A stretch of 64,000 nt of DNA, taken from the IMG/VR virus record IMGVR_UViG_3300045135_000807, positions 36 to 64,035 of that record; one strand, 5' to 3'. This stretch comes from a virus (Duplodnaviria > Caudoviricetes). The position numbers were made by a program, and so were the translations under genes. This document shows, piece after piece, positions 1,136-15,024 of the stretch (the stretch's first letter is position 1; each line of letters begins with the position of its first letter). A model generated the notes under the pieces. The model saw nothing but the letters and a program-made list of their open reading frames with translations, had not been told where the DNA came from and searched no databases.

Positions 1136-1344
1136 AAAAACAGTGTTACAGCTGTTGGCGTTCTTTGACATTTGGGGAAATAGTTAGAAACAGATCTGAA
1201 GAGCTAGAGTAGTGCCTAGCCAGTGCGCGAGGTTTTACCTTGTGCCGGGGCCCTGAGATGGGCCGAAACCTATTGCATAGCACATATGCAGCTGAGCCCA
1301 GTGAAAGCTGGGCCGGTCATCTGTTAACTAAACACTTTTTTATT

Positions 1345-1608
1345 ATGGATACTTTTGAAAAGGCAATGATCCAATTAGGACTAAACCAGTACAGAACGGA
1401 AGAGCAATTCGTTGAAGTAATGGACGATTGTTTCAACGGTAATTTTGAGCAAGGCGCAAGGAATTTCGTTCAATTTGGGTTTAGTGCACACGAGTACATT
1501 GAAAGACTGGAGGAGTACTGCGAGGGGCTCGTTAACGACAATGTAAAAGTTGAGCTTCTTAAAGATCTTGCAACACTGCTAGAAGTGAAGCAATACTTAG
1601 GTATTTAA
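1345..1608 (+). CDS. Hypothetical early protein
   Basis: ATG at 1345 (MDTFEK) directly follows repeat 1; the ORF-track extension to 1240 runs through the regulatory hairpins. Confidence 0.75.
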   Translation: MDTFEKAMIQLGLNQYRTEEQFVEVMDDCFNGNFEQGARNFVQFGFSAHEYIERLEEYCEGLVNDNVKVELLKDLATLLEVKQYLGI

Positions 1609-1670
1609 AAAAGAGCGGCCCAGTACGAGCTGGGCTGCTTTTGGTTATCTGTTAACTAAAATATTGAACG

Positions 1671-1904
1671 ATGTTTGATGCACACACCACCGTAAAAAGC
1701 TTGGATCATTTGAACGAGCTGAGAAAACACCAGTACACACTGGGCGAATTCCTATTTAATGAGCGCGGCGAAGTTTTTCTAGTAGAGGAAGCCGATGAAC
1801 TGTTAGAGGAAATAAGCTCGGGCCAGATCAACTACGCCATCAACTGGGAGAGCGAGATTTGGAGCGAAAGCGGAATATCTATTCCAGCCGTATATACGGA
1901 ATAA
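1671..1904 (+). CDS. Hypothetical acidic early protein
   Basis: 77-aa ORF between repeats 2 and 3. Confidence 0.75.
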   Translation: MFDAHTTVKSLDHLNELRKHQYTLGEFLFNERGEVFLVEEADELLEEISSGQINYAINWESEIWSESGISIPAVYTE

Positions 1905-1957
1905 AAATAAGAGCGCCAGTAGGCGCTCGGTTATCTGTTAACTAAAATAAAAAGACA

Positions 1958-2416
1958 ATGAAAAAAACAGTTTTTCTAGGCGAGGCCAAAGTTACTTACA
2001 AGGAAAAAAGAAACCCAGTAGAAGTAAAAATTAGGAGCTCACGGGATGTTTACAATCATCTAAGATCACACCTTAAAAAAGAGCTTCTTTTTGAGCGGGA
2101 GCATTTTGTTGTAATGTACCTAAACACGGCCAATACTATTATGTGGATTGAAACCGTTTCAGTAGGAACGAGTAAGAGCTGCACACCTGATAGTAACGCC
2201 ATAGTGAGAAGAGCGCTCACTGGTACAAGTACTTCCGTAATTGTGGCCCATAACCACCCAAGCGGAAATAAAATGCCCAGTGAGAATGACAGAAGATACA
2301 CTAAGGAGCTAAAAGAAAAGCTCAAAGTGTTTGAAATTCCGTTGTTAGATCATTTAATATTGACGAAGAACGAATACTACAGTTTTTCCGACAATGGCGA
2401 AAGGTCAGTAAGTTAA
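1958..2416 (+). CDS. radC: RadC-like JAB/MPN+ domain protein
   Basis: Intact JAMM signature: E (FEREHF) ... HNHPSGNKMPSEND, plus the LLDHLIL C-terminal motif. Confidence 0.9.
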   Translation: MKKTVFLGEAKVTYKEKRNPVEVKIRSSRDVYNHLRSHLKKELLFEREHFVVMYLNTANTIMWIETVSVGTSKSCTPDSNAIVRRALTGTSTSVIVAHNHPSGNKMPSENDRRYTKELKEKLKVFEIPLLDHLILTKNEYYSFSDNGERSVS

Positions 2417-2473
2417 ACTAAGAGCGTCCCTGATACGGGGCGCTTGGTTATCTGTTAACTAAAATAAAATAAG

Positions 2474-2620
2474 ATGGTAAAGGTATTTTTTGAATACAAA
2501 GGATACGCGGAGCATGTTCGTACGTATGCTACAGAACAAGAGTATATGAGCAATTTAATGGCCTTGGAAATACTCTGTGAGTCACTGGGGTTTGAAAGAA
2601 TAACTGAAACGATAGAATAA
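2474..2620 (+). CDS. Hypothetical 48-aa early protein (not in ORF track)
   Basis: MVKVFFEYKGYAEHVRTY...ETIE; ATG follows repeat 4; TAATG coupling to the next gene. Confidence 0.7.
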   Translation: MVKVFFEYKGYAEHVRTYATEQEYMSNLMALEILCESLGFERITETIE

Positions 2621-2781
2621 TGAAAGGATTTAGCGCAATTCAAAAAGCCATTGAGCTTAACTACCAGCTGGAGCAAGTGAAGAAGCTGGTATATAATATG
2701 GGCTGGGATTACGATAGAATGAGCAGCTCAGGTCAGCAATGCTACGAGGAGCTATGCGAATTATTGAATATTGAGCCATAA
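2620..2781 (+). CDS. Hypothetical 53-aa early protein (not in ORF track)
   Basis: MKGFSAIQKAIELNYQL...WDYDRMSSSGQQCYEEL; ends just before repeat 5. Confidence 0.7.
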   Translation: MKGFSAIQKAIELNYQLEQVKKLVYNMGWDYDRMSSSGQQCYEELCELLNIEP

Positions 2782-2832
2782 ACAAGGAGCGCCAGTAGGC
2801 GCTTCGGTTATCTGTTAACTAAATAAAAGAGG

Positions 2833-3546
2833 ATGAAAAGAATAGTTTTTACAATTCCTGACAAGGAATTACTGGTAGTTATCCGCAGTGGAGCTACTAC
2901 AAACAAGAAAATAAGCGGAGGAGGAAAGCTCGTGCAAACATACACTTTCAGTATGAGCCAGTATCACTTAGCCAATTCAGGGGCACAGATTACAATGAAA
3001 CAGTTTTTTGCGCTGGATAAAGCAAATTGTTTAGACTGCCCGTATTCAGGTAATTCAGGTAACGCTGGATGCTACACACACAAGTATATGCAATACTCGG
3101 GGTTTCTGTCTATGCTACGAAGCATAAAGTTAGAGGAGCTCGGGCCATTAACAAGAAGCAAAGGAGCGGACATAGTTGAGATGTGCTACGGAAAATATGT
3201 ACGCTTTGGTACATACGGCGAGCCATCACTGATGCCTATTTCATTAGTTGAAGCTATGGTATATGTTGCTAAAACTTGGACTGGATACACCCACCAATGG
3301 TCTAAAGACTGGGCCAGTAGTTATGGCCGTTATTTTATGGCCAGTACACACAATGATGAGGAAAGCTCAAAAGCTAAGGATTTAGGCTATAGATCATTTA
3401 TATCTGTTATACCTGACAAAAAGGTAAGCGGCATAAATTGTCCCGCAAGCTCCGAACAAGGATATAAAAGTAACTGTGAGAAGTGCGGCCTATGTTCGGG
3501 GATGTTAGGCAAGGGGGAAAAGAACATTTGGATTTTAGAACATTAA
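2833..3546 (+). CDS. Cys-rich phage protein, possible Fe-S/Zn binding (gp88-like)
   Basis: CLDCP...GCY, VRFGTYGEP, TGYTHQW and CPAS...CEKCGLC motifs. Confidence 0.6.
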   Translation: MKRIVFTIPDKELLVVIRSGATTNKKISGGGKLVQTYTFSMSQYHLANSGAQITMKQFFALDKANCLDCPYSGNSGNAGCYTHKYMQYSGFLSMLRSIKLEELGPLTRSKGADIVEMCYGKYVRFGTYGEPSLMPISLVEAMVYVAKTWTGYTHQWSKDWASSYGRYFMASTHNDEESSKAKDLGYRSFISVIPDKKVSGINCPASSEQGYKSNCEKCGLCSGMLGKGEKNIWILEH

Positions 3547-3557
3547 TTTAAACTACT

Positions 3558-3836
3558 ATGACTGGATTTGAAACAGACAAGAACAACACATTTATGTATG
3601 GTGATAGGAACGGCAGCCGACCTATGACCAGAGCTTACTGGAATTTAGCATTAAGCATACGAGATGTAGGCTTATTCTGTAAGGGGATATCGCCGAATAG
3701 ACATTGGCGATTAAAACATGTTAAACAGTATTTTGGTGTGACTGGAACGAAAGAAACCATCTTAAAAAAGCTAGAAGATATGATGCTAGCATATAAAATA
3801 GAGCTCGGGATTTACGAGGAGTCCGAGCTGAACTAA
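3558..3836 (+). CDS. Hypothetical early protein
   Basis: 92-aa ORF ending just before repeat 6. Confidence 0.7.
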   Translation: MTGFETDKNNTFMYGDRNGSRPMTRAYWNLALSIRDVGLFCKGISPNRHWRLKHVKQYFGVTGTKETILKKLEDMMLAYKIELGIYEESELN

Positions 3837-3886
3837 ATAAGAGCGCCAGTAGGCGCTCGGTTATCTGTAAATTAAAACTATACACC

Positions 3887-4138
3887 ATGCGATTAAAGTA
3901 TGAATACACCGAGGAATACAGAGCGAGATTTAGCCTTAATAAAGGGGAACGCTACTGGATGAATGAAGCTTTCAAGCTTTATAAAGATGCAATTCAAAAA
4001 GAGCTTCAGGAAATGATAAATAATGGCGACCGTCCATTTATACACCCAAGCTTCTTTGACCAGTTTTTTATTGATATAGAGAACAAGTTAGATATGTGGA
4101 CCAAAACTGATGAGCACAGATCAGTGGAGGAGGTTTAG
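3887..4138 (+). CDS. Hypothetical early protein
   Basis: 83-aa ORF between repeats 6 and 7. Confidence 0.7.
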   Translation: MRLKYEYTEEYRARFSLNKGERYWMNEAFKLYKDAIQKELQEMINNGDRPFIHPSFFDQFFIDIENKLDMWTKTDEHRSVEEV

Positions 4139-4199
4139 TTAACGGTATGTGCAAAGGAGCTCCAATAGGAGCTTCGGTTATCTGTAAAAAATTATAACT

Positions 4200-4745
4200 A
4201 TGAGAAATTTATTTAGTAACTGGCTAAAGCGCCAGTGTGGTATCATTGACCGGAATGGCGATGATATGATGAACTATCTACTAATGAAAGTGGATTACTT
4301 ATCGGAGAGGGTGGCATACCTGGAGTCCGAGAACAAAAAACTATTGGGCGATATCGCGGACCTGAACAGAGATTTGGAAAATGCTAAATCGGATTTTAAA
4401 TCGGATTTGGAGGAATTGGACCGTGTTGTTGACAATATTAAGAGCGATGTGGAGATGGGCAACTTTAACTACATATGGGAGGTATTGGATGAGCTCCAAA
4501 GAGATTACAAGGACCTTGAGGTTCCTGATGAAAGTGATATCAGGGACATAATACAAAGAGAGCTGGATGCATTGGAGCCATCACAAACGGAACTGGAAAC
4601 AGAGGATGCTGATAGCATACGCAAAATGGTGGTTAACACTATGAGCGATTTGATGGAGCACCGAGTAAGGATCCATAACCATACTATTTGGAAAAAGATT
4701 GGAACTGCAGTTGAAGAAATCATTGAGGAACATACAAATATTTAA
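4200..4745 (+). CDS. Acidic coiled-coil protein
   Basis: 181 aa, heptad-like, D/E-rich; follows repeat 7. Confidence 0.75.
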   Translation: MRNLFSNWLKRQCGIIDRNGDDMMNYLLMKVDYLSERVAYLESENKKLLGDIADLNRDLENAKSDFKSDLEELDRVVDNIKSDVEMGNFNYIWEVLDELQRDYKDLEVPDESDIRDIIQRELDALEPSQTELETEDADSIRKMVVNTMSDLMEHRVRIHNHTIWKKIGTAVEEIIEEHTNI

Positions 4746-4748
4746 ACG

Positions 4749-4934
4749 ATGGGTTATATCGGAGATATCAAAGTAGACTGTACGCTGACCTTTAAAGGGA
4801 GCGTAAGAGCAACACTCTATGAGATGATGACTATAGAGGAGATAATCCACGACATAATGCATGCTGGAGACTACGAGATAGAAGTAGTATCAGGAGGTAT
4901 GGATGTTGAGGAGGTTGAGGAAATTGAAGACTAA
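4749..4934 (+). CDS. Small highly acidic protein
   Basis: 61 aa ending DVEEVEEIED. Confidence 0.65.
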   Translation: MGYIGDIKVDCTLTFKGSVRATLYEMMTIEEIIHDIMHAGDYEIEVVSGGMDVEEVEEIED

Positions 4935-4997
4935 TTAAGAGAGCGCCAGTGGGCGCTCTTGGTTATCTGTTAATTATAATAATCTAATACAATTACA

Positions 4998-5375
4998 ATG
5001 GACATTTACACTATTGCTAAAGAAGAGGCGAACATTAAGCGCCAAAAAAAAGCCCTTGAAAGAAAGGTACTCGTAGATGATATGAGGAGGAGAGAAGCTA
5101 AGATGCTGGAAGCTTTTGATGATTTAGGCATCAAGTATTATAAAAGCCCTTGGTATAGAGAGCGAACAGAACAGGTGAATGGATCAATAGAATTTAAGTA
5201 TGATGTGTTCCTTACTACAGAAATGGGAAAAAAGAATTCCGTAGAGGTAAAGGCTGCTAAAAGCGGATACGAATTAAGAGAGAACTGGGGCGATTGTTAT
5301 GGTAATGACTACGAAACATTAGATGAGCTGATTGAATCTGTTGTGCGTTACATAAGAAGAGCAAACGGTTGTTAA
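4998..5375 (+). CDS. Hypothetical early protein
   Basis: 125-aa ORF between repeats 8 and 9. Confidence 0.75.
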   Translation: MDIYTIAKEEANIKRQKKALERKVLVDDMRRREAKMLEAFDDLGIKYYKSPWYRERTEQVNGSIEFKYDVFLTTEMGKKNSVEVKAAKSGYELRENWGDCYGNDYETLDELIESVVRYIRRANGC

Positions 5376-5428
5376 GCAAAGCGCCCAGTGGGCGCTGGTT
5401 ATCTGTTAATTATAATAATGCAAGAGAA

Positions 5429-5614
5429 ATGAATTGCGAAAACAAATCAAAGAAAGAGTGCATTGGCGATGGTATCGGGGATATCCGCTACGATGCATAC
5501 GGTATACCTACCGGGTATTACTGCGACAAGTGTTACCACGATGGTAACTATCCTTATCGGAAAGATAAGTACGAGTACTGGGAGCATGGCGAACGATTAG
5601 ATTGGGAAGAATGA
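5429..5614 (+). CDS. Small putative Zn-binding protein
   Basis: Start moved to the ATG at 5429 after repeat 9; four Cys including CDKC. Confidence 0.65.
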   Translation: MNCENKSKKECIGDGIGDIRYDAYGIPTGYYCDKCYHDGNYPYRKDKYEYWEHGERLDWEE

Positions 5615-5835
5615 TGGGATATAGAATATGCGATGAAACCAAGGAGCCAATGCAAGAGGGCTGGTTCCTTGCTGATGCTATATACTTAAAGTATCAAAAG
5701 GATGTGGATTCATACCTCATGGAATGGGCTAAAGATGACAACCTCCAATGGGAAGACATTGAAGAGCTCAGGGATCATTACTTTGATAATGGGATGTACT
5801 ACTGGACAACTTGGTATGATGAAGAAGAAGAATGA
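5611..5835 (+). CDS. Hypothetical acidic protein
   Basis: ATGA overlap with the upstream stop; C-terminus YYWTTWYDEEEE. Confidence 0.65.
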   Translation: MMGYRICDETKEPMQEGWFLADAIYLKYQKDVDSYLMEWAKDDNLQWEDIEELRDHYFDNGMYYWTTWYDEEEE

Positions 5836-5838
5836 ATT

Positions 5839-6021
5839 ATGAGCGATTACGATAAGATATACGATAAGATAGACACCATGAAGTTTTACCTCGGTCTTAG
5901 GGAGAATGTACTTTTTGTACGTTATCTTGAAGACATAGAACAATTTATAAACACTATTGAGGCGAAACAGAATGGAGAACAAAGAGAGAGAACGCATACT
6001 GTTGAGGATTTTAAAGAGTAG
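5839..6021 (+). CDS. Hypothetical protein
   Basis: 60-aa ORF in the operon. Confidence 0.55.
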   Translation: MSDYDKIYDKIDTMKFYLGLRENVLFVRYLEDIEQFINTIEAKQNGEQRERTHTVEDFKE

Positions 6022-6124
6022 TTTTATCAACAGTATTATAGTTATATCTTCAGGCCTCTCGTTTGTTTTTCTCTGCAAGTACATACTCGGTTTGTTATAT
6101 AACTTTATTACATTTGGAGGGTAG
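5972..6124 (+). CDS. Small membrane protein, 50 aa (not in ORF track)
   Basis: MENKERERILLRILKSSFINSIIVISSGLSFVFLCKYILGLLYNFITFGG; ends in the terminator stem. Confidence 0.5.
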   Translation: MENKERERILLRILKSSFINSIIVISSGLSFVFLCKYILGLLYNFITFGG

Positions 6125-6149
6125 TCCGTTGGGCTATCCTCTTTTTTTT
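6117..6149 (+). terminator. Rho-independent terminator closing the early region
   Basis: GAGGGTAGTCC-GTT-GGGCTATCCTC stem followed by T8. Confidence 0.85.
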
Positions 6150-6159
6150 GTCCTTTTTT

Positions 6160-6540
6160 AGCTGTGTTTGTGGGGAGCAAAACAGCATCCAGAAGAGTAT
6201 TTACTAAGTAAAAGACACGCTGGTTACGGAGACGATTAATACACACTCCGTGAGCACCAGTGATAATTGGAAACTATTACTGTTTCAATGGCTCGTACAA
6301 AAGTGTAAGCAGATGCTGGATTCCTATACCTTTCCGGTCTGCGGGTGACAATGCGACCGACAACTCGGTATGAGCTGTTCCTCTTAAAGGGTGCTATACC
6401 CTTTAGGGGATCTTGTAGCTCCCTCCAATCTGGTAAAAGCTGTTCTTAGTTACGGCAACGTCAGTTCTATAAACAAGGAGCGTGGGCGCACCACGCCCCC
6501 AGCGACTTGTTAAGTTGGTATATACAGGGAGTTTTTTTGA
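6160..6540. other. Highly structured non-coding region (candidate ncRNA or replication origin)
   Basis: Several nested inverted repeats; no credible ORF; lies between the early terminator and the replication genes. Confidence 0.45.
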
Positions 6541-6612
6541 TAAATTTTATACACGGAGTTGTTTATATCTCAGTTATTTCGTAGATTTAAACATAATTTA
6601 ATTCAATAACAT

Positions 6613-7146
6613 ATGGGGAACCATCAGTTCAAGACCACCAACATCAAGGGGAAACAGTATGTTGAGGTCAATGAGCGCGTCAAGGCGTTCAAAACGTTAT
6701 CGGAGTACAAGGATATGTCCTTGGAAACAGAAATCATTCAACTTACAGACGACAGCTGTGTAATTAAGGCTATCGTAAAAGACAAGGATGGCCGAGTTCT
6801 GGCCACTGGTATGGCGCAGGAGGATAAGACTTCCTCACGCATCAATCAAACAAGCTATGTAGAAAACTGTGAGACATCAGCCATTGGTAGAGCTCTTGGT
6901 TTTATGGGTATTGGTATTGATACTTCTATTGCTACTGCCGATGAGGTTGATATGGCTATTAAGAAGCAAGAGTCTTCACAATCTACACCTCAGCAGTCAA
7001 GCAGTTCTGATGTGTTCAAGCAATCTATTGACTATCTAAAGAACACTCCTGTAGATAAGAAGGAGATGTCTTTTGAGATGATCATGAGCAAGCACGGAAA
7101 GAAATTCTCTGAGAAGCAAGTAGAAGCTCTAAAGAAATTTATGTGA
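6613..7146 (+). CDS. Rad52/Sak-like single-strand annealing protein
   Basis: IKGKQYVEVNER...ENCETSAIGRALGFMGIG motif; adjacent to an exonuclease and an SSB-like gene. Confidence 0.7.
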   Translation: MGNHQFKTTNIKGKQYVEVNERVKAFKTLSEYKDMSLETEIIQLTDDSCVIKAIVKDKDGRVLATGMAQEDKTSSRINQTSYVENCETSAIGRALGFMGIGIDTSIATADEVDMAIKKQESSQSTPQQSSSSDVFKQSIDYLKNTPVDKKEMSFEMIMSKHGKKFSEKQVEALKKFM

Positions 7147-7280
7147 TGACAAGCAATGAAAACAATCTTGTAATCAACCTTGAGTGCCTTAAAGAAGGGA
7201 CTACCGTTTTATATAATGGTAAAGAGTTCACTTGGCACGAAGGATTGCTTTACAACGAAGAAACCAATACCTGTTTATAA
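7146..7280 (+). CDS. Hypothetical 44-aa protein (not in ORF track)
   Basis: MTSNENNLVINLECLKEG...; coupled by TGATG and TAATG overlaps at both ends. Confidence 0.55.
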   Translation: MTSNENNLVINLECLKEGTTVLYNGKEFTWHEGLLYNEETNTCL

Positions 7281-8089
7281 TGGAGTTCGCGAGCAAACTG
7301 GTTGAGTTGACCGGTAAACCATACCTATCGTACTCGGCTATTAAATACGCTGCGAATGGAAGTAAACAGCAAGACATGAAGCTCTTTGAGCTTTATATAA
7401 AAGGTCTGTTAAAAAAGGATTCCCCGGCATTGTCCTTTGGATCTCTTTACGACTGCCTCTTACTTGAGCCGGAGAAGGCCAGTGACCAGTTCATCATTAT
7501 TGATGATGCTGAAATCTGTGCTTCTATCGGAGGTAAGAGCCCCAGAGCGACAAAGAAATACAAAGAATGGAAAGAGGAGTTCATGGCACAGAACGCAAGT
7601 AAAACCATTGTATCCGAAGAAGATTGGGAGATGGCAACGGCAATGATCAATAGACTGGATGCCTCTGAGTTCGTAGAACCGGAGACTGGTGAGATTGTTT
7701 CGGTAAGGTCTTTTTTGACTGGCAAGCCCCAAGTTGAATTCAATACTTGGATTGAAGAGATACCTGTGCGTGGATTCTTTGACTGTGAAGGAGACACCTT
7801 TATAACAGATAGCAAAAGCACTCGTAGTGTGTATGGCTTTAGGTATGACGTAAAAGGGTTTGACTACGACATACAAGCGTATATCTACACTAAGGTAAGT
7901 GGGGGGAAAGATTTCTATTGGGTCGCCCAAGGTAAATCCAAACCCTACTTGTGTGCTGTCTACAAGGCATCGGACAAAATTCTTGAGAGCGGAGAACAGA
8001 AGTTCTGGTCTGCTGTTGAGAACATCTCGCGATGGCTTGATGAACCAAGCAAGGATACTGAAAGCTTTGCTTTATACGGAGTAATATAA
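7280..8089 (+). CDS. PD-(D/E)XK exonuclease (RecE/ExoVIII-like)
   Basis: LSYSAIK, FGSLYDCLLLEP, RGFFD...TDSKST, YDIQAYIY; start set to the ATG at 7280. Confidence 0.8.
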   Translation: MEFASKLVELTGKPYLSYSAIKYAANGSKQQDMKLFELYIKGLLKKDSPALSFGSLYDCLLLEPEKASDQFIIIDDAEICASIGGKSPRATKKYKEWKEEFMAQNASKTIVSEEDWEMATAMINRLDASEFVEPETGEIVSVRSFLTGKPQVEFNTWIEEIPVRGFFDCEGDTFITDSKSTRSVYGFRYDVKGFDYDIQAYIYTKVSGGKDFYWVAQGKSKPYLCAVYKASDKILESGEQKFWSAVENISRWLDEPSKDTESFALYGVI

Positions 8090-8118
8090 TCGGGAGAAGT
8101 CCCACAATTTTTGTAATC

Positions 8119-8373
8119 ATGACAGAGAAGAAAAATGTCTACATGGGCTACGCTGAAGGTCCAAAGATTCAGCAGAATATCTCATTCAAAGTAGATCAGT
8201 TGGATGAGCTCAAGAAGTACGCAACTCAAGCGGGTAATGTGAACCTTACAGTGGTAACACACTACAGCCGTGATGAGAAAGGCACTAAGTCTTTCATCAG
8301 TGTGTACAATCCTCATGAAGGTAAGACCCAAGGCTTCCAGCCCAAAACGCCTGCTGGTGACTTACCATTCTAA
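8119..8373 (+). CDS. Putative single-stranded DNA-binding protein
   Basis: C-terminal GDLPF tail typical of SSBs; recombination-gene context. Confidence 0.55.
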   Translation: MTEKKNVYMGYAEGPKIQQNISFKVDQLDELKKYATQAGNVNLTVVTHYSRDEKGTKSFISVYNPHEGKTQGFQPKTPAGDLPF

Positions 8374-8683
8374 TGTAGAGGGGGGTCGGATCATCCGGCT
8401 CCCCATTTACTACCTTGAGGTGCAAGTATCCTATTTAAAGCGTAAGCACTGGACACCGATGGATACCTGGGTAGTGACAACGATTGAAGAAATGAACTAT
8501 ATCTTGAGGGAGGATATTAAGACCAAAGACCGACTATTTCAAGCGATCTATGGTAAGGGATACAAAAGCCAAAAAGCTGTCCGCATAGACAAGGTACACA
8601 GCAAGAAAGAGGTTGGCTTTGCTACAAGGCCCTACGAGGAGTTGAGCGAATCACAAAAGAAGAAATACAATGAAATTAGATAG
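8270..8683 (+). CDS. Hypothetical protein (true start probably downstream, about 8419)
   Basis: ORF fills the gap before 8670; its 5' part overlaps the SSB-like gene. Confidence 0.55.
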   Translation: MMRKALSLSSVCTILMKVRPKASSPKRLLVTYHSNVEGGRIIRLPIYYLEVQVSYLKRKHWTPMDTWVVTTIEEMNYILREDIKTKDRLFQAIYGKGYKSQKAVRIDKVHSKKEVGFATRPYEELSESQKKKYNEIR

Positions 8684-9227
8684 CACTTTAATATTTAAAG
8701 CCAACGACCAGTACTTCACACTGAGTGAGTTCTGGGACAATGTCGTAAAGGAAAGAAAGGTAACAGACAGTAGAGCAAGAGGTAACGTGATCTACAGACA
8801 CGCATTCTCATCTATCTGTTATGATGTATCTACACTACCTATCGTACAAATAGCTTCTATCATCAAGCGTGACCACGCCACAGTGATACACGCCGTAAGA
8901 GTAAACGAAGAGAACAGAAAGTACGACCCCAGATATGAATCTGTTTATGTGTGGATGCACAACGAAATATCAAAGGCACTGAAAGACCATATTGATGAGC
9001 GTTCTGAGCTCGTGATGGCTCGTGTGCGTAAGACCAATCCAGACATTGATATTGACTCACTTGTAGAGGGCATCAACAGAGAATGGAGCCTAAAGACTTC
9101 TATCACCATAGAGGAGAATAAGAAGCTCAAGAAGGAACACGAGGGCATCATCAAGCAACTCCAGTTCTTGACCGCTAGAAATAAATTACTTGAATCTGAA
9201 TTAAAACGTGTAAAAAACCTACTGTAA
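8670..9227 (+). CDS. DnaA domain IV-like HTH protein with C-terminal coiled coil
   Basis: IASIIKRDHATVIHAV resembles the DnaA C-terminal RDHTTV signature. Confidence 0.7.
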   Translation: MKLDSTLIFKANDQYFTLSEFWDNVVKERKVTDSRARGNVIYRHAFSSICYDVSTLPIVQIASIIKRDHATVIHAVRVNEENRKYDPRYESVYVWMHNEISKALKDHIDERSELVMARVRKTNPDIDIDSLVEGINREWSLKTSITIEENKKLKKEHEGIIKQLQFLTARNKLLESELKRVKNLL

Positions 9228-9370
9228 TGAAAGATATGAAGCAGTTCCTACGCATTGCAAATGCGAGGCTAAGAAAGATCTATCCGAACAAGCAACAACG
9301 TAGAGCCTGGGCGGCAAAGATGTGGGCAAAGTATGTTCAACGCAAAGCCCAGAGAGATGAGAAGCGATGA
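9227..9370 (+). CDS. Basic 47-aa hypothetical protein (not in ORF track)
   Basis: MKDMKQFLRIANARLRKIYPNKQQRRAWAAKMW...; TAATG coupling. Confidence 0.6.
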   Translation: MKDMKQFLRIANARLRKIYPNKQQRRAWAAKMWAKYVQRKAQRDEKR

Positions 9371-9545
9371 ACTCAAGCAAATGGTAGGTCGGGAATGTGA
9401 GTTTCTGTCCTACTACATTGAAGAGTACGAAAGAATGCTAAGCACAGATCCTAAAAACCAAGCGTTGAAGGATAGCATTAAAGAGATGAAAGGCAAGTGG
9501 GAGGCCTACGACAAGGTGTACAGGTTTATAAAAGAAACGCTATGA
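9357..9545 (+). CDS. Hypothetical protein
   Basis: ORF-track frame; start moved to MRSDEL. Confidence 0.55.
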   Translation: MRSDELKQMVGRECEFLSYYIEEYERMLSTDPKNQALKDSIKEMKGKWEAYDKVYRFIKETL

Positions 9546-9736
9546 AAAAATATCTGAGAAAAATAGCTCACAAAAGGTTTGTCAACAGATACTTGAATGA
9601 CATACGATGGGAGATAATAAACACTGTGATCGCAGCAAGCGCAACAGAGTATAACGAATATGTTACAACACACCTGGAGAACCTGGGACGTCTTGTACGC
9701 AAATACGAAAGAAGAAGAAGATGGCTGAGATTCTAA
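9542..9736 (+). CDS. Hypothetical basic protein
   Basis: MKKYLRK start with ATGA overlap. Confidence 0.6.
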   Translation: MKKYLRKIAHKRFVNRYLNDIRWEIINTVIAASATEYNEYVTTHLENLGRLVRKYERRRRWLRF

Positions 9737-9927
9737 ACATAGACTACCACACCAAGAGATTAGTAACAGAGGCATTGATCCGCAGCAAGGATGTTGCTGA
9801 TGCAGCGACTAAGTTAGAGGTCAGCGTGCGTAGCGTGTTCCGCTACATGAAGAAGTTTGAAATAGACTACAAGGAAATAAAGAAGGCTAGGAAAGATAGA
9901 ATAACCTTTAACACCAAAGAGAAATGA
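9721..9927 (+). CDS. Small Fis-like HTH protein
   Basis: VADAATKLEVSVRSVFRYMKKF HTH pattern. Confidence 0.7.
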   Translation: MAEILNIDYHTKRLVTEALIRSKDVADAATKLEVSVRSVFRYMKKFEIDYKEIKKARKDRITFNTKEK

Positions 9928-10098
9928 CACCATTAGAGAATGTTCAAATTATTGAAGTTAAAGCGGGTGTAACTACTATCACTTACAAAGATGGTACTAA
10001 GCTTACCACTAAAGATGATGTTACACTTGGGCTTGGCTACAAAAATGAGAATGATATTCCTCTAAATGACCATTGTCTTTAACACCAAAAAGAAATGA
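9906..10098 (+). repeat. 22-bp direct repeat CTTTAACACCAAA(G/A)AGAAATGA
   Basis: Copies at 9906-9927 and 10077-10098; each ends in the ATG of the next gene. Confidence 0.85.
9924..10082 (+). CDS. Hypothetical 52-aa protein between the direct repeats (not in ORF track)
   Basis: MTPLENVQIIEVKAGVTTITYKDG...DHCL. Confidence 0.6.
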   Translation: MTPLENVQIIEVKAGVTTITYKDGTKLTTKDDVTLGLGYKNENDIPLNDHCL

Positions 10099-10400
10099 GT
10101 GAAAGAGAAGAAACCTGGAAAGCAATCAGAGAAGGCTATAAAGAATGGCGAGAAGAGCGCAGAGAAAGAAACAGAATGAAAATGCAGAAATGGTTAGATA
10201 AAAATAATATCAAATACTATTTGATGCTGGAGTTAGGAAAGTCTTCATTGTGGAAGGATGGCCATCTTATTGGATACATTTCTATGGCGACAAACGTCAA
10301 CGAACCTATTAACGTAAGGTTAGAAAGCGGACGATGGCAAAAAATGAGAAAACCGGATTTTGTAAAGTATTATAAAAATATAAAAACTGAAGAGTTGTGA
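10095..10400 (+). CDS. Hypothetical protein
   Basis: 101-aa ORF starting in the second 22-bp repeat. Confidence 0.65.
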   Translation: MSEREETWKAIREGYKEWREERRERNRMKMQKWLDKNNIKYYLMLELGKSSLWKDGHLIGYISMATNVNEPINVRLESGRWQKMRKPDFVKYYKNIKTEEL

Positions 10401-10522
10401 AGTTTATACCGCACGAAGACGATTGGGAAAAAGAATACCGAGAGAGTTTAAAGAAGCAGCGCAATCGCAAGATTGCAAACAAGCTTAGAGTTTTAGGATC
10501 ACCTAAAAAGAAAAAGAAATGA
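10397..10522 (+). CDS. Basic 41-aa hypothetical protein (not in ORF track)
   Basis: GTG start overlapping the upstream TGA; MKFIPHEDDWEKEY...KKKKK. Confidence 0.45.
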   Translation: MKFIPHEDDWEKEYRESLKKQRNRKIANKLRVLGSPKKKKK

Positions 10523-10580
10523 CTGATATTATATCACTATGCAACCGTGATCTGGATGATAACGGAATAGAAAAAGACTG

Positions 10581-11069
10581 ATGAAACGTTTCTCAAAAGA
10601 ATCTTGGGAAGACTATAAGGCCAAGCTACGCAGATCTAATGATGCTGTGTGGGCTGTGGCTAGATACCTACACTCGCTACAACATACAGTGACCGTACCG
10701 GCACTGCACATCGCTAAAGACCTCAGCGAATACAAAGAGATGGTGGATGAAGGAGATATCATCCTACATCGCGATGGTAAAGAAGATATCGTTGAGGTAA
10801 AACACCAGAGCTGGGACTGGACAGACCATAGCCACATACCTTGGCCAGAGATCATTGTCTGTGCAAAGAAGAGCTACGACCGCCACAAGAAAAAGCCTGT
10901 AGCTTACTTCCTGGTAAATAAACAGCTGTCACACTCACTCGTGATACCCACCTCCACCTACAGCTCCTGGACCGTAAAAGACATCCACGACAAACACAAG
11001 AATTGGATACAAAGGATGTACATGATCGTACCTACAAATTATCAGTTCACACAACTTGATTTATTGTAG
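10581..11069 (+). CDS. Putative PD-(D/E)XK nuclease-fold protein
   Basis: DEGDI...VEVKH motif. Confidence 0.55.
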   Translation: MKRFSKESWEDYKAKLRRSNDAVWAVARYLHSLQHTVTVPALHIAKDLSEYKEMVDEGDIILHRDGKEDIVEVKHQSWDWTDHSHIPWPEIIVCAKKSYDRHKKKPVAYFLVNKQLSHSLVIPTSTYSSWTVKDIHDKHKNWIQRMYMIVPTNYQFTQLDLL

Positions 11070-11102
11070 CATTGTTTATATCTTCATGTCAAATTCAATT
11101 CA

Positions 11103-11363
11103 ATGTCAATTAAAGATCAAATCATAGAGCTGTACGCCGATCACGAAGAAGGCGCACCGCTGTTTGCCGATGGTTTTGACGCTGCCATCATCGGTATCTG
11201 CCCTACATCACTGCGAGTGGTGTACTCACGAAATGTATGTATTGACATCCTCATTGCCGAGGGAGACAGCTGGGAAGATGCTGTTGACTATCTGGAATAT
11301 AACACGTTTAACGCCTATGTTGGGGAACATACTCCTATATGGGTGGAAGACTTTAAATGGTAA
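11103..11363 (+). CDS. Conserved phage hypothetical protein
   Basis: ADGFDAAIIG...EYNTFNAYVGEHTPIW, a pattern I recognise from aquatic phages. Confidence 0.7.
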   Translation: MSIKDQIIELYADHEEGAPLFADGFDAAIIGICPTSLRVVYSRNVCIDILIAEGDSWEDAVDYLEYNTFNAYVGEHTPIWVEDFKW

Positions 11364-11367
11364 GACT

Positions 11368-11574
11368 ATGGCCTATAACAACAACAAAGAGCACAAGAAG
11401 ATTATTGACTGCGTACTGATGCGAAACGCTATTATGTACACTAACCTTGGCACAGACTGCCCACGCAGTGAGTACGACAAAGCAAAACTGGAAGAGAGAC
11501 GCAGGCTGAGAAAGATTCAGCACCTTGATCCAGAGAAAATAGGAAGATTAATCAAAGACTCGCTAGATGACTAA
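11368..11574 (+). CDS. Hypothetical protein
   Basis: Start moved to MAYNNNK; overlaps the next gene's start. Confidence 0.6.
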   Translation: MAYNNNKEHKKIIDCVLMRNAIMYTNLGTDCPRSEYDKAKLEERRRLRKIQHLDPEKIGRLIKDSLDD

Positions 11575-11923
11575 TACACCACCAGAGTACTACATCGGCA
11601 AGTACAAGAAGATTGAGGCAATGGATGTTGTCTTAGACTTCCAAGAAGATAATTACAACCTTGGCGTTGCCATCGCATATCTGTTGCGTGCCGGGAAGAA
11701 AAAGGGCAACCCCATCACTCAAGACATTGAGAAAGCAATAGTACATCTGAAAACTGAACTTGAACACTTAACTACAAATGGAGGATCTAACAGTAACGAT
11801 ATTCAAGAACATCAAGGACATCCAATCCCCTCATCATATTACTATACGAACAGCACTGGCGCGTATAAAGAGTGGCAAGAGCAAATCCTTGATAGAGAGG
11901 GTCCGTGGAGTTCACAGCGTTGA
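11567..11923 (+). CDS. DUF3310-like protein
   Basis: PPEYY...IEAMDV...YNLGVAIAYLLRAGKK...DIEKAI motif. Confidence 0.75.
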   Translation: MTNTPPEYYIGKYKKIEAMDVVLDFQEDNYNLGVAIAYLLRAGKKKGNPITQDIEKAIVHLKTELEHLTTNGGSNSNDIQEHQGHPIPSSYYYTNSTGAYKEWQEQILDREGPWSSQR

Positions 11924-13598
11924 CGAGAACAATAACCCTGTACCCGATAAAGAAGCCAAGAAAGACCTTCCTGTAGTCTGTTTTAGTGGGCAGTTTGATT
12001 CACGTAGAGATGACGCTCTAGTGTCTCACAACGGTCTAATAGTACTTGACTTTGACCACATTGATGTGGATGTATCTAAGTCTATCCTGGCTACAGATGA
12101 CTATGTGTATGCCTGCTGGGTGTCTCCAAGTGGAGACGGATTGAAGGCTCTGGTAAGGATCAGCACGCCGTCCAAACACCGCGAACACTTCAAGGCGATA
12201 CAGCTGTACATGGACCGCACATACGGTCTGGAGGTAGATCCATCGGGAAAGAATGAATCTCGTGCATGTTTTGAGTCTTATGATCCAGACATCATCATCA
12301 ACGACAACTGCAAGACATTCTCTTCCATCGTCTCTGATACCGAGGAAAAACAGGTAGCTCACCACAAGCAGATTACAACAGACTACAACAAGCTTGCTAT
12401 CATCTCTTCTATCATCCGTAGAGCTGAAGATGGTGAGAAGCACACACAGCTGGTAAAAGCTGCACACCTCGCTGGAGGATTTATATCTGCCGGGCGTATT
12501 GAAGAGGATGAAGCTCGTAGAGTGCTCATGCGTGAGATCCTCAAGAAAGACATAGACAGCGAGGAGAATGCTCGTAAAGCTATTGATGATGCGCTGGAAG
12601 CTGGTAAGAAGATGCCTATCCGTGATGTGGTAGATGGCGAGAGCAAGGCCATCCGAGAGATGCAACTCAACGATAATGACTTCAGCTTCGTATCTAATGA
12701 CGACCTGGACTTCAGCTGGATATCTGATTACGCTGCGGGAAACATTGAGATTGGACTAACCACAGGTAACGACATCTTAGACAAATACTTCCGCTACAAG
12801 AAAGACTTTACCATCATCAACGGTATATCTAATGTCGGTAAGACCACACTTGCATTATACCTCATGGTAAATTCAGCTGTTCTTCATGGTTGGAAGTGGA
12901 TTGTATACAGTTCAGAGAACAAAACAGCATCAGTGAAGATGCGCTTGATGGAGTTCATTGTTGATATGCCCATCCGACAAATGGATCGTGAGATGCAGAA
13001 GTATGCATTCAACTGGGTAAACAAACACTTTAAAATCATCAGCAACAACGATGTATACAACTACAGTGAGCTTATTCTTTTTGCTGAGAAGATTATGCAC
13101 CACGAAGGGAAGTATGACGGCTTCTTCGTAGATCCCTACAACAGCTTGCGTATAGACATAGGTAAGAACATCAGCAGCCACGAGTATCACTACGAGGCGG
13201 CATCAGAGTTCCTTACATTCTCCAACAGGATGAACATGGCTGTTTGGCTAAATATGCACGCAGTAACAGAAGCCCAGCGTGTGCGTGGAGAAGATGGCTT
13301 GCCTGTAGCACCAACAGCAGCGATGACTGAAGGAGGCGGTAAGTTCGTGAATAGGGCCGACTGCTTCTTGACATTTCACAGGAAGGTTTCCTCACCAGAG
13401 TACGATATACGTAAGACAATGGAGTTCCACGTACGTAAGATTAGGGAGACAGAAACTGGAGGAGAATGTACCGTCTGGAATGAGCCGTTCCTCTTCCGGA
13501 TGAACGAATCCAACACAGGTTTCAGTACTTACACACCACAAGGAAGCCTGTATACGCCGCTGGTGTTAAAAAGAATCCAAGGAGAGCTAGTTTTATAA
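11778..13598 (+). CDS. Primase-helicase (VirE-N/BT4734-like primase domain + P-loop helicase)
   Basis: N-terminal IVLDFDH and SPSGDGLK motifs; Walker A GISNVGKT; Walker B FFVDPYN. Confidence 0.85.
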   Translation: MEDLTVTIFKNIKDIQSPHHITIRTALARIKSGKSKSLIERVRGVHSVDENNNPVPDKEAKKDLPVVCFSGQFDSRRDDALVSHNGLIVLDFDHIDVDVSKSILATDDYVYACWVSPSGDGLKALVRISTPSKHREHFKAIQLYMDRTYGLEVDPSGKNESRACFESYDPDIIINDNCKTFSSIVSDTEEKQVAHHKQITTDYNKLAIISSIIRRAEDGEKHTQLVKAAHLAGGFISAGRIEEDEARRVLMREILKKDIDSEENARKAIDDALEAGKKMPIRDVVDGESKAIREMQLNDNDFSFVSNDDLDFSWISDYAAGNIEIGLTTGNDILDKYFRYKKDFTIINGISNVGKTTLALYLMVNSAVLHGWKWIVYSSENKTASVKMRLMEFIVDMPIRQMDREMQKYAFNWVNKHFKIISNNDVYNYSELILFAEKIMHHEGKYDGFFVDPYNSLRIDIGKNISSHEYHYEAASEFLTFSNRMNMAVWLNMHAVTEAQRVRGEDGLPVAPTAAMTEGGGKFVNRADCFLTFHRKVSSPEYDIRKTMEFHVRKIRETETGGECTVWNEPFLFRMNESNTGFSTYTPQGSLYTPLVLKRIQGELVL

Positions 13599-13649
13599 CT
13601 AGCTTTTTTTGTTTTATAAACATAAATTAGTTAGATTGTTAGAAACTAT

Positions 13650-14024
13650 ATGGATCAAACCATTGAAATAGCATTGTATTTGCCTAAGCCACCATCGTTG
13701 AACACGTTCTACGCTGGTAAACACTGGACAATACGCAAGAAACATAAAGAAAAGTATAACCAAAGTATAAAGGAAGCCTTTGAAAGCTATGATGATTTTA
13801 CAGCTGATCAGTTCTCCATTAGAGTTGAATACAACGCACGATATGACGTAGATAACGCCATCATGTGTGCAAAGTTTGTAAGCGACTACTTAAAGGATAA
13901 TGGATATGCTGTTGATGATACCCCAAAGTATTTCGTTAAACAAAGCACTGAATACAATAACACCCTAAAGAAAAATGAGTTCCTATGTAAGATTAAGCTC
14001 TATGGATACCGCCTCCGTGAGTAA
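13650..14024 (+). CDS. RusA-like Holliday junction resolvase
   Basis: PPSLN...RYDVDN...KFVSDYL...DDTP pattern. Confidence 0.7.
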   Translation: MDQTIEIALYLPKPPSLNTFYAGKHWTIRKKHKEKYNQSIKEAFESYDDFTADQFSIRVEYNARYDVDNAIMCAKFVSDYLKDNGYAVDDTPKYFVKQSTEYNNTLKKNEFLCKIKLYGYRLRE

Positions 14025-14232
14025 AGATTTCTTCAACGCCTGTGACATGATGCACCAGATGGTTGATGAATTGTATGAAAGCCTACATGATCCCTACGGA
14101 CAGCCCCTGCTAAATGAGGAGGAGATCATGGAACTGACCAAGACATTTAAAAATAAGATGCGTCTTGAGTTGGATATGGTAAAGTCATCTGTTCACCAGC
14201 ACCTGGAAGAGCATGCCAAGGGCGACAGCTAA
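14017..14232 (+). CDS. Hypothetical protein
   Basis: GTG start overlapping the upstream stop; ORF-track frame. Confidence 0.55.
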   Translation: MSKDFFNACDMMHQMVDELYESLHDPYGQPLLNEEEIMELTKTFKNKMRLELDMVKSSVHQHLEEHAKGDS

Positions 14233-14590
14233 ATGCTACAAGTGTAAGAGGATAAAAAAGAAGAGCCTCTTTCATAAAGACAACTCCAGGAAGTCTGGAG
14301 TAGCTTCGTACTGCAAAGCCTGTAAGAAAAAATCAGACTCTAAAAGAGCGGGGAACTACGGTGACAAAGATGAGGAAGGTAATTACATATACACCGTCTA
14401 CTACCTTCCAGAAGAGCATTACGTAGGAATGACAAAGGCCCTAGAGAAGAGGATGAGGGACCACAAAAAGCTCGGAAAAATTACTGAAGGATACGAAATC
14501 ATAGGCCAGTACTCAGATCCAAAGATGGCTCACCTGGTAGAGACAAGGATGCATCTGATGGGCTACAATGGGTTTCATTACAATGGTTAA
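14213..14590 (+). CDS. Zn-finger + GIY-YIG endonuclease
   Basis: CYKC...CKAC followed by TVYYL...YVGMT...RMRDH...E. Confidence 0.7.
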   Translation: MPRATAKCYKCKRIKKKSLFHKDNSRKSGVASYCKACKKKSDSKRAGNYGDKDEEGNYIYTVYYLPEEHYVGMTKALEKRMRDHKKLGKITEGYEIIGQYSDPKMAHLVETRMHLMGYNGFHYNG

Positions 14591-14643
14591 TTCCGTACCT
14601 TTACAAGCTCTTTATTTTTCTAACCCTTTTAAAAATTATAGCT

Positions 14644-14766
14644 ATGTCTGAACTACAGATTAGTGACAGCTTTGCTGACTTTGTGAACGAGCTTGAAACC
14701 AGTGATAAGAACGCCAATGCTCAATGCTCTATTGACAATCCGGAATGTGAGAGCTGTAGCGGTTAG
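14644..14766 (+). CDS. 40-aa peptide resembling the RNR alpha-subunit C-terminal tail (not in ORF track)
   Basis: MSELQISDSFADFVNELETSDKNANAQCSIDNPECESCSG; AT-rich leader upstream and terminator immediately downstream. Confidence 0.7.
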   Translation: MSELQISDSFADFVNELETSDKNANAQCSIDNPECESCSG

Positions 14767-14773
14767 AATGATC

Positions 14774-14804
14774 AGAGGGGTGGAAAAAATTCTGCCCCTC
14801 TTTT
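14774..14804 (+). terminator. Rho-independent terminator
   Basis: AGAGGGG...CCCCTCT stem followed by Ts. Confidence 0.75.
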
Positions 14805-14825
14805 ATTTTATATGTTAAAGTTTTA

Positions 14826-14925
14826 TATATTTGAACTGTTACTCTTACCACATTTCTCCCCAACCTCTTTGGTATAGAGTTATAGTTTTCAGATCGGAAA
14901 AGGAGGCCTATGAGCCTCCTTTTTT
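14826..14925 (+). ncRNA. Candidate small RNA of about 90 nt, with its promoter box
   Basis: TATATTTG box at 14826-14833, a long hairpin with a CU-rich loop, then a terminator; no + strand ATG-initiated ORF in between. Confidence 0.45.
14898..14925. terminator. Bidirectional terminator at the convergence of the + and - transcription blocks
   Basis: AAAAGGAGGC-CTATGA-GCCTCCTTTT. Confidence 0.85.
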
Positions 14926-15024
14926 GTTTGCGTAACAGCAGCTGCCGTCACATTCCTTTGGTTCTACAGCACAGTACTTACTTTTAACGTCAGTAGTTTG
15001 CTGTTTCTTTTTCTTCTTAGGCAT
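14908..15024 (-). CDS. 38-aa Lys/Cys-rich peptide (not in ORF track)
   Basis: MPKKKKKQQTTDVKSKYCAVEPKECDGSCCYANKKGGS; overlaps the stop of the lipoprotein gene. Confidence 0.4.
   Translation of the reverse strand: MPKKKKKQQTTDVKSKYCAVEPKECDGSCCYANKKGGS

Follow-up and report, generated by a model that had tools for sequence, protein, structure and literature searches.

What do nine copies of one hairpin-bearing repeat do in front of the early genes of a phage? The question is raised by a marine virus of the Caudoviricetes (Duplodnaviria) catalogued as IMG/VR record IMGVR_UViG_3300045135_000807, which has 64,035 bases and is rated complete. We analysed positions 36 to 64,035 of this record, a window of 64,000 nucleotides (nt) that omits just 35 bases, and coordinates given without the name of a relative refer to that window. 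A preliminary description had noted that the early genes or gene pairs are each preceded by a GC-rich stem-loop fused to a short conserved motif, and had offered RNA processing sites, hairpin promoters, antitermination elements and homology points for gene exchange as alternatives. This interpretation is partly supported by the present analysis. Our own answer, which we put forward tentatively and with somewhat less than even confidence, is that each repeat may combine a hairpin that protects the 3’ end of the upstream message with a substrate-only site, and that these sites may all be cut by a single hammerhead-like strand encoded in the leader of the operon.

The repeats themselves are as they had been described. 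The motif GGTYATCTGT occurs in nine exact copies, all on the + strand, which start at 1315, 1643, 1929, 2446, 2806, 3859, 4176, 4961 and 5397 and together span 1315-5406, with none elsewhere in the genome. The longer GGTYATCTGTWAA is found nine times forward and never in reverse in the whole 64,035-base record, and a control with the sequence written backwards gave no match in either orientation. A GC hairpin stands before all nine copies, its 3’ arm stopping 0-1 nt ahead of the GGT, and at every copy an ATG follows 14-27 nt downstream of the 10-mer. The stems quoted earlier for 1615, 1911, 2422, 3841 and 4156 read as stated. The complete elements are:

1296-1328, + strand: element 1, a hairpin and GGTC followed by ATCTGTTAAC, which closes the leader structure; proposed cleavage after 1318
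1611-1656, + strand: element 2, a 14-pair hairpin and the motif
1911-1942, + strand: element 3
2422-2459, + strand: element 4
2786-2819, + strand: element 5
3841-3872, + strand: element 6
4156-4189, + strand: element 7
4939-4974, + strand: element 8
5380-5410, + strand: element 9

For a wider view of the element, 74 distinct copies were collected from 11 sequence sources (the window and 10 related loci) with a regular expression that fixed eight of the 10 motif positions. In 72 of these copies the motif is abutted by a hairpin of seven pairs or more, as against 38 of 2000 random positions. The stems are 7-14 pairs long, with variable loops of 3-6 nt, and they covary, 45 different stem sequences being represented among the 74 copies. 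Their pairs comprise 565 Watson-Crick, 68 G.T and 2 A.C pairs, and because wobble pairs outnumber A.C pairs to this extent the fold is under selection on the sense (+) strand, the strand that the preliminary description had already favoured. Furthermore, the stem is longer on the + strand than on the - strand in 51 copies, equal in 20 and shorter in three. Within the motif, position 4, which the expression left free, is T in 65 copies and C in nine, and never G. Position 5 is A in 73 copies and G in one, position 11 is T in 63, A in nine and C in two, and positions 12-13 are always AA. Bar one copy, the T/C position is the sole variable base of GGTYATCTGT, and it sits where a hammerhead would cleave. 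A mismatch-tolerant search yielded four more variant copies with a hairpin, and an 18-mer search of IMG/VR returned two relatives and three single chance matches. Close relatives, in which the large terminase (TerL) is 87-90% identical, share the motif: a 59-kb contig has five copies at the end where it is cut, a 12-kb contig has nine and a 63-kb contig has 10.

How would the genes between these repeats be transcribed? With what we take to be the Bacteroidota-type promoter consensus (TTG, 17-21 nt, TAnnTTTG), the window has eight matches, and the sole one on the + strand lies at 1106-1135, some 180 nt before copy 1. The early block is framed by two features:

1106-1135, + strand: candidate host-type (Bacteroidota-style) promoter, TTG-N19-TATATTTG, in a region conserved in relatives
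6116-6150, + strand: canonical intrinsic terminator, a 12-pair stem followed by seven T, which closes the early block

The hairpin of this terminator recurs with the same sequence after the early block of the relative L101. Given one host-type promoter and one canonical terminator, the early block is probably one operon, read as a single transcript of about 5 kb. The preliminary description had held that there is no TAnnTTTG box and no U-tract, and that the elements are neither host promoters nor ordinary terminators. A box does exist at 1128, just upstream of the array; none lies within any element, and the window scan found none between 1441 and 6108, which leaves the elements as something other than host promoters. 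A sigma-70-type scan of the window gave 27 matches where 35.4 were expected, none of them on the + strand at an element; one listed match is on the - strand at 5440-5412, 2 nt past element 9. As for U-tracts, true U runs do occur, in some copies only, namely UUUU at the 1615 copy and U6 in some copies of relatives. The elements are nevertheless probably not ordinary terminators, for their stems run straight into GG, which those of the canonical terminators of this genome do not do. With 5 T in 8 bases as its rule, a lax terminator scan does accept eight of the nine elements, as the motif itself is rich in T.

Between the promoter and the first element lies a part of the locus that had been overlooked, a leader with a hammerhead-like core (1189-1270) whose arms are complementary to the motif. 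It emerged as a conserved, structured region from an alignment, across four genomes, of the 280 nt that precede copy 1, and ten distinct leaders were compared in all. Its parts are:

1189-1195, + strand: AACAGAT, the 5’ arm, complementary without mismatch to ATCTGTT (positions 5-11 of the motif); proposed stem I strand
1196-1202, + strand: CTGAAGA box, equivalent to hammerhead C3-A9
1203-1248, + strand: two inserted hairpins, Ha (5 base pairs (bp), invariant loop AGTAGTGC) and Hb; all 5 pairs of Ha and 2 of the 6 pairs of Hb show compensatory changes
1249-1264, + strand: hairpin Hc, at the position of hammerhead stem II, with compensatory changes in 3 of 5 pairs
1265-1270, + strand: invariant GAAACC, that is, a GAAA box and then CC; its ACC complements the GGT of the motif (proposed stem III)

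After GAAACC come a hairpin Hd, the hairpin of copy 1, GGTC (1315-1318), ATCTGTT (1319-1325) and AAC. The order of AACAGAT-CTGAAGA, GAAACC 62 nt on (69 nt from start to start) and copy 1 is conserved in all ten leaders, and so is the AACAGAT arm itself; a metagenome scan for leaders gave ten stretches, with identical arms in all. The CTGANGA box directly 3’ of this arm, the fifth base of which is A, C or T in relatives, agrees with the Rfam consensus line and with 16 hammerheads of relatives, and ACAGATCTGA is found once in the window. Three-base linkers separate the hairpins. The one after Ha is CAG, and after Hb the window reads CGG where the remaining nine leaders have CAG. The predicted leader fold has a minimum free energy of -64.1 kcal/mol (z -5.4, reached by 0 of 200 shuffles), and across the ten leaders 10 pairs of Ha, Hb and Hc have changed on both sides (0 of 500 shuffles). 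Both RNAalifold and RNAfold predict the AACAGAU/AUCUGUU stem (1189-1195 with 1319-1325). GAAACC (1265-1270) faces GGT-Y (1315-1318), in an invariant pairing argued solely from complementarity. As such, leader and element 1 together carry two hallmarks of a hammerhead, a CUGANGA box beside a stem I strand and a GAAA box, the last A of which would pair with the U ahead of a would-be cleavage base other than G. Searched for in IMG/VR, the leader pattern occurred in the same clade only, plus three chance matches.

Complete hammerheads are found in more distant relatives. Where TerL is about 70% identical, the equivalent early-gene junctions are occupied by canonical type-I hammerheads, for instance at the following positions:

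L098 (G003), 16593-17571, - strand: hammerheads
L099, 2019-2074: hammerhead
L100, 2160-2210: hammerhead

These have the full core and three covarying stems. In an alignment of 16 distinct type-I hammerheads (from G003-G005, L040, L041, L044, L053, L103 and L141), 99.6% of cells are paired and 11 of 15 pairs have changed on both sides, against 0 of 500 shuffles. An ATG lies 23-41 nt past the predicted cut in 14 of the 16, a figure that excludes L103 and L141, and the TAA stop of the upstream gene usually falls within stem I (GGTTAA). These hammerheads came from a structured scan, which replaced a loose pattern that gave hundreds of coding matches. Neither a search at the Rfam gathering thresholds nor the type-I model of Rfam picks them up; RAGATH-1 scored 18.9 bits.

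Copies 2-9 repeat the substrate half of copy 1, consisting of the hairpin, GGTY and ATCTGTTAAC, and the repeats can therefore be read as cleavage sites served by the leader. The nine units would then be RNA elements within one early transcript of about 5 kb, from the promoter at 1106-1135 to the terminator at 6116-6150. Cutting would be the work of a hammerhead-derived ribozyme strand that is encoded in one place only, the leader of the operon (1189-1270). The AACAGAU of this strand would pair with AUCUGUU as stem I, the ACC after its GAAA box would pair with GGU as stem III, and its CUGAAGA and GAAA boxes would form the ribozyme core. Cleavage would fall after the Y of GGU-Y-AUCUGUU. The GC hairpin would stay behind on the upstream message and protect its 3’ end, and the A-rich sequence beginning with UUAAC would start the message of the next gene, a start identical to the one that cleavage by the true hammerheads of the relatives would produce. 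Copy 1 would be cut in cis within the leader fold, and the other eight copies, as substrate-only duplicates of copy 1, would be reached either over a long range on the same transcript or by released leader RNA. When leader and sites are cofolded, the arm pairs with the motif at 8 of the 8 downstream sites. In its fullest form, the proposal is of one natural hammerhead-derived enzyme strand and many substrate-only sites. The transcript would be cut at nine points, either in cis over a long range or in trans with turnover, and the portable substrate half would double as a cassette boundary; this we hold with slightly less confidence than the reading above. The sequences, their complementarity, the + strand hairpins, the covariation of the leader, the hammerheads of relatives and the shuffling of cassettes are observed; from these we infer a single transcript, cleavage, its position and its action in trans.

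A number of observations weigh against this proposal. The cofold energies are modest, at -6 to -10 kcal/mol, and overlap those of shuffled controls. Stem II is not contiguous, as 46 nt holding Ha and Hb separate the CTGAAGA box from Hc, and RNAalifold favours a pairing of CUG with the CAG after Ha, which would destroy the hammerhead core. The proposed stem III has just 3 bp. Both proposed arm stems are invariant and show no covariation, so that the arms offer no covariation test; the single change, in L189, is from U-A to U-G. Moreover, six of the ten leaders were retrieved by a pattern fixing CTGANGA, the Ha loop, CAG and GAAAC, and the constancy of the boxes in those six is thus forced. Rfam gave nothing at the gathering score for the leader and no hammerhead at E up to 10 over 5.6 kb. 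The best match in a 206-nt search was a weak one, to Hammerhead_3, covering Hc and GAAAC (14.4 bits, E 2). An Rfam blank means little here, because the same models miss the canonical hammerheads of the relatives. A look for RNA sequencing runs that cover 1200-6200 returned none. Finally, the middle genes at 6613-14700 likewise have no host-type promoter box on the + strand, which makes the absence of such boxes within the array weak evidence for a single transcript. Because of the interrupted stem II, the preferred CUG-CAG fold, the 3-bp stem III and the arms without covariation, we describe the leader (1189-1270) as hammerhead-like or hammerhead-derived and do not class it as a hammerhead. 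Other ribozymes were considered as well; twister, twister-sister, pistol, hatchet, HDV-like and hairpin ribozymes had no Rfam match at E up to 10.

Could a protein do the cutting instead? In the early region of T7, which has a promoter at its left and a terminator at its right, structured sites lie between the cistrons and hairpins are left as 3’ ends. Of the alternatives offered earlier, RNA processing in the manner of T7 is the one that fits best, with one promoter, one terminator, nine sites, and the hammerheads of relatives at the same junctions. If the sites were processing or stabilising sites cut by a host or phage RNase, the hairpins would protect 3’ ends, and the leader would act on copy 1 only, either through a regulatory fold or by cleavage as a ribozyme in cis, while at the other copies the motif would be kept for the protein. 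The operon frame and the intercistronic structured sites fit such a scheme equally well, the hairpins are + strand RNA hairpins, and relatives such as L103 have plain GC hairpins and no shared motif between their early genes. Yet what host RNase III cuts in T7 is a long irregular duplex, whereas here hairpins of 7-14 bp stand beside a single-stranded motif that matches an RNA guide. These stems fall short of the irregular duplex of about 20 bp expected of an RNase III substrate, an almost invariant motif of 13-14 nt would be unusually specific for a general RNase, and the complementarity of that motif to the arms flanking the CTGAAGA and GAAA boxes would go unexplained. On balance we regard a protein RNase as unlikely, although it is the strongest of the competitors. 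The same complementarity bears on the suggestion that the repeats pair a terminator with a promoter, after the fashion of the promoter-early stem-loop (PeSL) cassettes of T4-type phages, so that GGTTATCTGTTAAC and what follows would be a promoter for a phage-specific or modified polymerase and each gene its own unit. Eight of nine units pass the lax terminator scan mentioned above and some copies have real U runs, the shuffling of cassettes is as in PeSLs, and other lineages have promoter-like early motifs, such as that of L132, in which GATAATATA is followed by CTGTAAC-TAAAA. PeSLs, too, are repeated stem-loop boundaries before small early genes, with modular shuffling among close relatives. 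However, they hold a strong host-type early promoter within the repeat, and here no sigma-70-like or Bacteroidota-type promoter, nor any other host promoter consensus, lies within the element. Early genes would need a polymerase present at injection, and neither an RNA polymerase nor a sigma factor was recognised among the window proteins; PF00940 had no match, a weak negative since its control matched nowhere either. With the stem running directly into GG and the leader complementarity left aside, we consider this explanation less likely still than a protein RNase.

On another view, modelled on HK022 put RNA, the hairpins would act as weak terminators or attenuators and so set graded expression along the operon, and the leader would be a put-like antiterminator in cis that lets the polymerase read through them. 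In its favour are a leader right behind the promoter that is strongly structured and covaries, and terminator-like hairpins downstream, but it gives no reason for the complementarity between motif and arm or for a position restricted to T or C, and none of the relatives is known to work in this way, so that we deem it improbable. A purely DNA-level role, as recombination hot spots or operators without any function in RNA, would accord with the changes of gene order at the repeats and with the insertion in a contig of run X10 described below. The wobble asymmetry of 68 against 2 pairs and the covariation among 45 distinct stems speak of a single-stranded sense fold, for which a double-stranded DNA site would have no need, and we give an exclusively DNA-level role very little credence. 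Hairpin promoters like those of N4, another of the earlier suggestions, are contradicted by the same asymmetry. The promoters of the N4 virion RNA polymerase are template-strand hairpins with a fixed small loop; here a short hairpin likewise stands just upstream of the early genes, but the wobble pairs place its fold on the sense, non-template strand, the loops vary from 3 to 6 nt, and no virion polymerase or other RNA polymerase was recognised in the window. Lastly, motif positions 5-11 equal what we take to be the class II pause/termination heptamer of T7 RNA polymerase. A pause site of this class was dropped as a coincidence; no T7-like polymerase was found, in a search whose polymerase control was uninformative.

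The preliminary description had suggested exchangeable cassettes and asked for gene content to be compared between relatives, and in that comparison, run over eight genomes or contigs of the clade, gene content does change exactly at repeat boundaries. The gene-family backbone of the clade is A-B-C-F-H-I, and other genes appear, vanish or move at the repeats. Family G stands with F in the window, whereas one relative has it as a separate unit between B and C and others have it in an O-G-M unit. In most genomes family L comes after B, but in the window it lies within the last unit. Between C and F there is either nothing or E, D and E, or an unrelated gene. An empty unit was seen in L014 (G002) at 9250-9345, where two complete elements lie 95 nt apart with no open reading frame (ORF) between them, and one DNA contig from run X10 is a natural variant with ~990 additional nt precisely where element 9 has its hairpin (window 5375-5397). 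Contigs also break at the repeats, as any repeat would lead one to expect, and these breaks are given no weight here. As a pattern, these data support the view that the repeats may also act as homology points at which cassettes are gained, lost or moved, since every gene or gene pair carries the same boundary of about 45 bp; most simply, the mechanism would be homologous recombination between these boundaries. Differences in gene content at repeat boundaries among close relatives are a feature of PeSL arrays as well.

How does this arrangement compare with hammerheads known from elsewhere? In Perreault et al. 2011 (PMC3088659), prophages are reported in which clustered hammerheads flank single genes or small blocks of varying identity, and are read as processing long transcripts; a halovirus hammerhead described there lies 13 nt before an early start codon, with a mapped 5’ end within 3 nt of the cleavage site. 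Like those clusters, the present array has its sites between genes and a predicted cut tens of nt before the ATG, and the arrangement in the relatives is exactly that of the clusters. Unlike the clusters, where each site is complete and cis-acting, the window has one core-like strand and eight downstream sites with the substrate half only, and its stem II region is interrupted by two extra hairpins. A split (discontinuous) hammerhead is known from mammalian 3’ untranslated regions (PMC2920678). There the enzyme and substrate strands lie far apart on one transcript, and one enzyme strand serves one substrate in a eukaryotic mRNA, whereas here one enzyme-like strand would face nine sites.

Other lineages of the phage group carry early-gene repeats of their own. 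The locus L132 (189-5954; also L135, L136 and L139) has 12 copies of a tripartite motif of ~60 nt before its early genes, made up of TTACAAAA, YACGA and GATAATATA, then CTGTAAC-TAAAA; the whole looks like a promoter, and its last part is similar to the 3’ half of the window motif. L010 (MW202828.1; 1477-6907) and L170 mark their early genes with a palindromic hairpin that hardly varies (GGTGTCGTTAACGACAC, with or without one A) and stands 20-40 nt ahead of the ATG. L167 (444-10544) has eight copies of a 19-nt palindromic hairpin, with a conserved GC-rich stretch of ~35 nt after four of them and a tRNA-like T-arm after one (a partial tmRNA match, E 0.002). For these lineage-specific repeats we found no Rfam family and no second split arrangement. 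Across the screened loci, bar long ones with chance-level counts, there was no other CTGANGA arm with a repeated complement and a consistent preceding TY.

As for the phage itself, the + strand genes from ~1,300 to 15,000 are early and replication genes, and the remainder, on the - strand, are virion genes. Its TerL matches 107 phage records, all at less than 60% identity, 68 of them from Flavobacterium and 15 from Cellulophaga phages; the best match is MW202828.1 at 50% identity, and these Flavobacterium and Cellulophaga relatives are podoviruses. A near-identity search among phage GenBank records gave no match. Giant ORFs had raised the prospect of a crAss-like phage with a virion RNA polymerase, which was rejected, as no DFDxD motif and no polymerase domain were found; the large ORFs are tail fibres or structural proteins. 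Early transcripts from the virion polymerase of phage phi14:2 had no common motif, according to the preprint on that phage (10.1101/2020.03.07.982082). An ORF of 2747 amino acids (16199-24442, - strand) ends the virion block; it has no PHROG match and only a RadC/JAB domain, at residues ~1489-1613, an ORF of 3859 amino acids takes its place in the closest named relative, and its product is possibly an ejected protein. Two stretches flank the early block. At 1011-1070, just upstream of the early promoter, lie three copies of GAGCTGACGAGCT, partly conserved in L101, which could be protein-binding iterons or a genome-end feature; they are not hammerhead cores, since they proved to have neither a GAAA partner nor stems. 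The other stretch, of ~460 nt (6150-6612), separates the early terminator from the first replication gene and is non-coding and rich in inverted repeats.

Arrays of hammerheads in phages are already known, and what the literature we searched does not contain is one enzyme-like strand facing many substrate-only sites. That literature lists no natural trans-acting or multi-site hammerhead in a phage, the sole split hammerhead in it being the mammalian one (PMC2920678). If the leader strand does serve nine sites, it would offer a natural precedent for a multi-target ribozyme, along with an evolutionary route from the complete hammerhead arrays of sister lineages to one enzyme with many substrates. 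To our knowledge, natural hammerheads are treated as self-cleaving and single-turnover, with one split case in mammalian mRNAs, and guide-like hammerheads that cut several targets exist only as engineered tools. The early region likely holds anti-defence genes, and the same arrangement would tie RNA processing signals to modular gene exchange in this fast-evolving part of the genome. Moreover, the purpose of phage hammerhead arrays, long an open matter, would become directly testable in a small and well-defined system.

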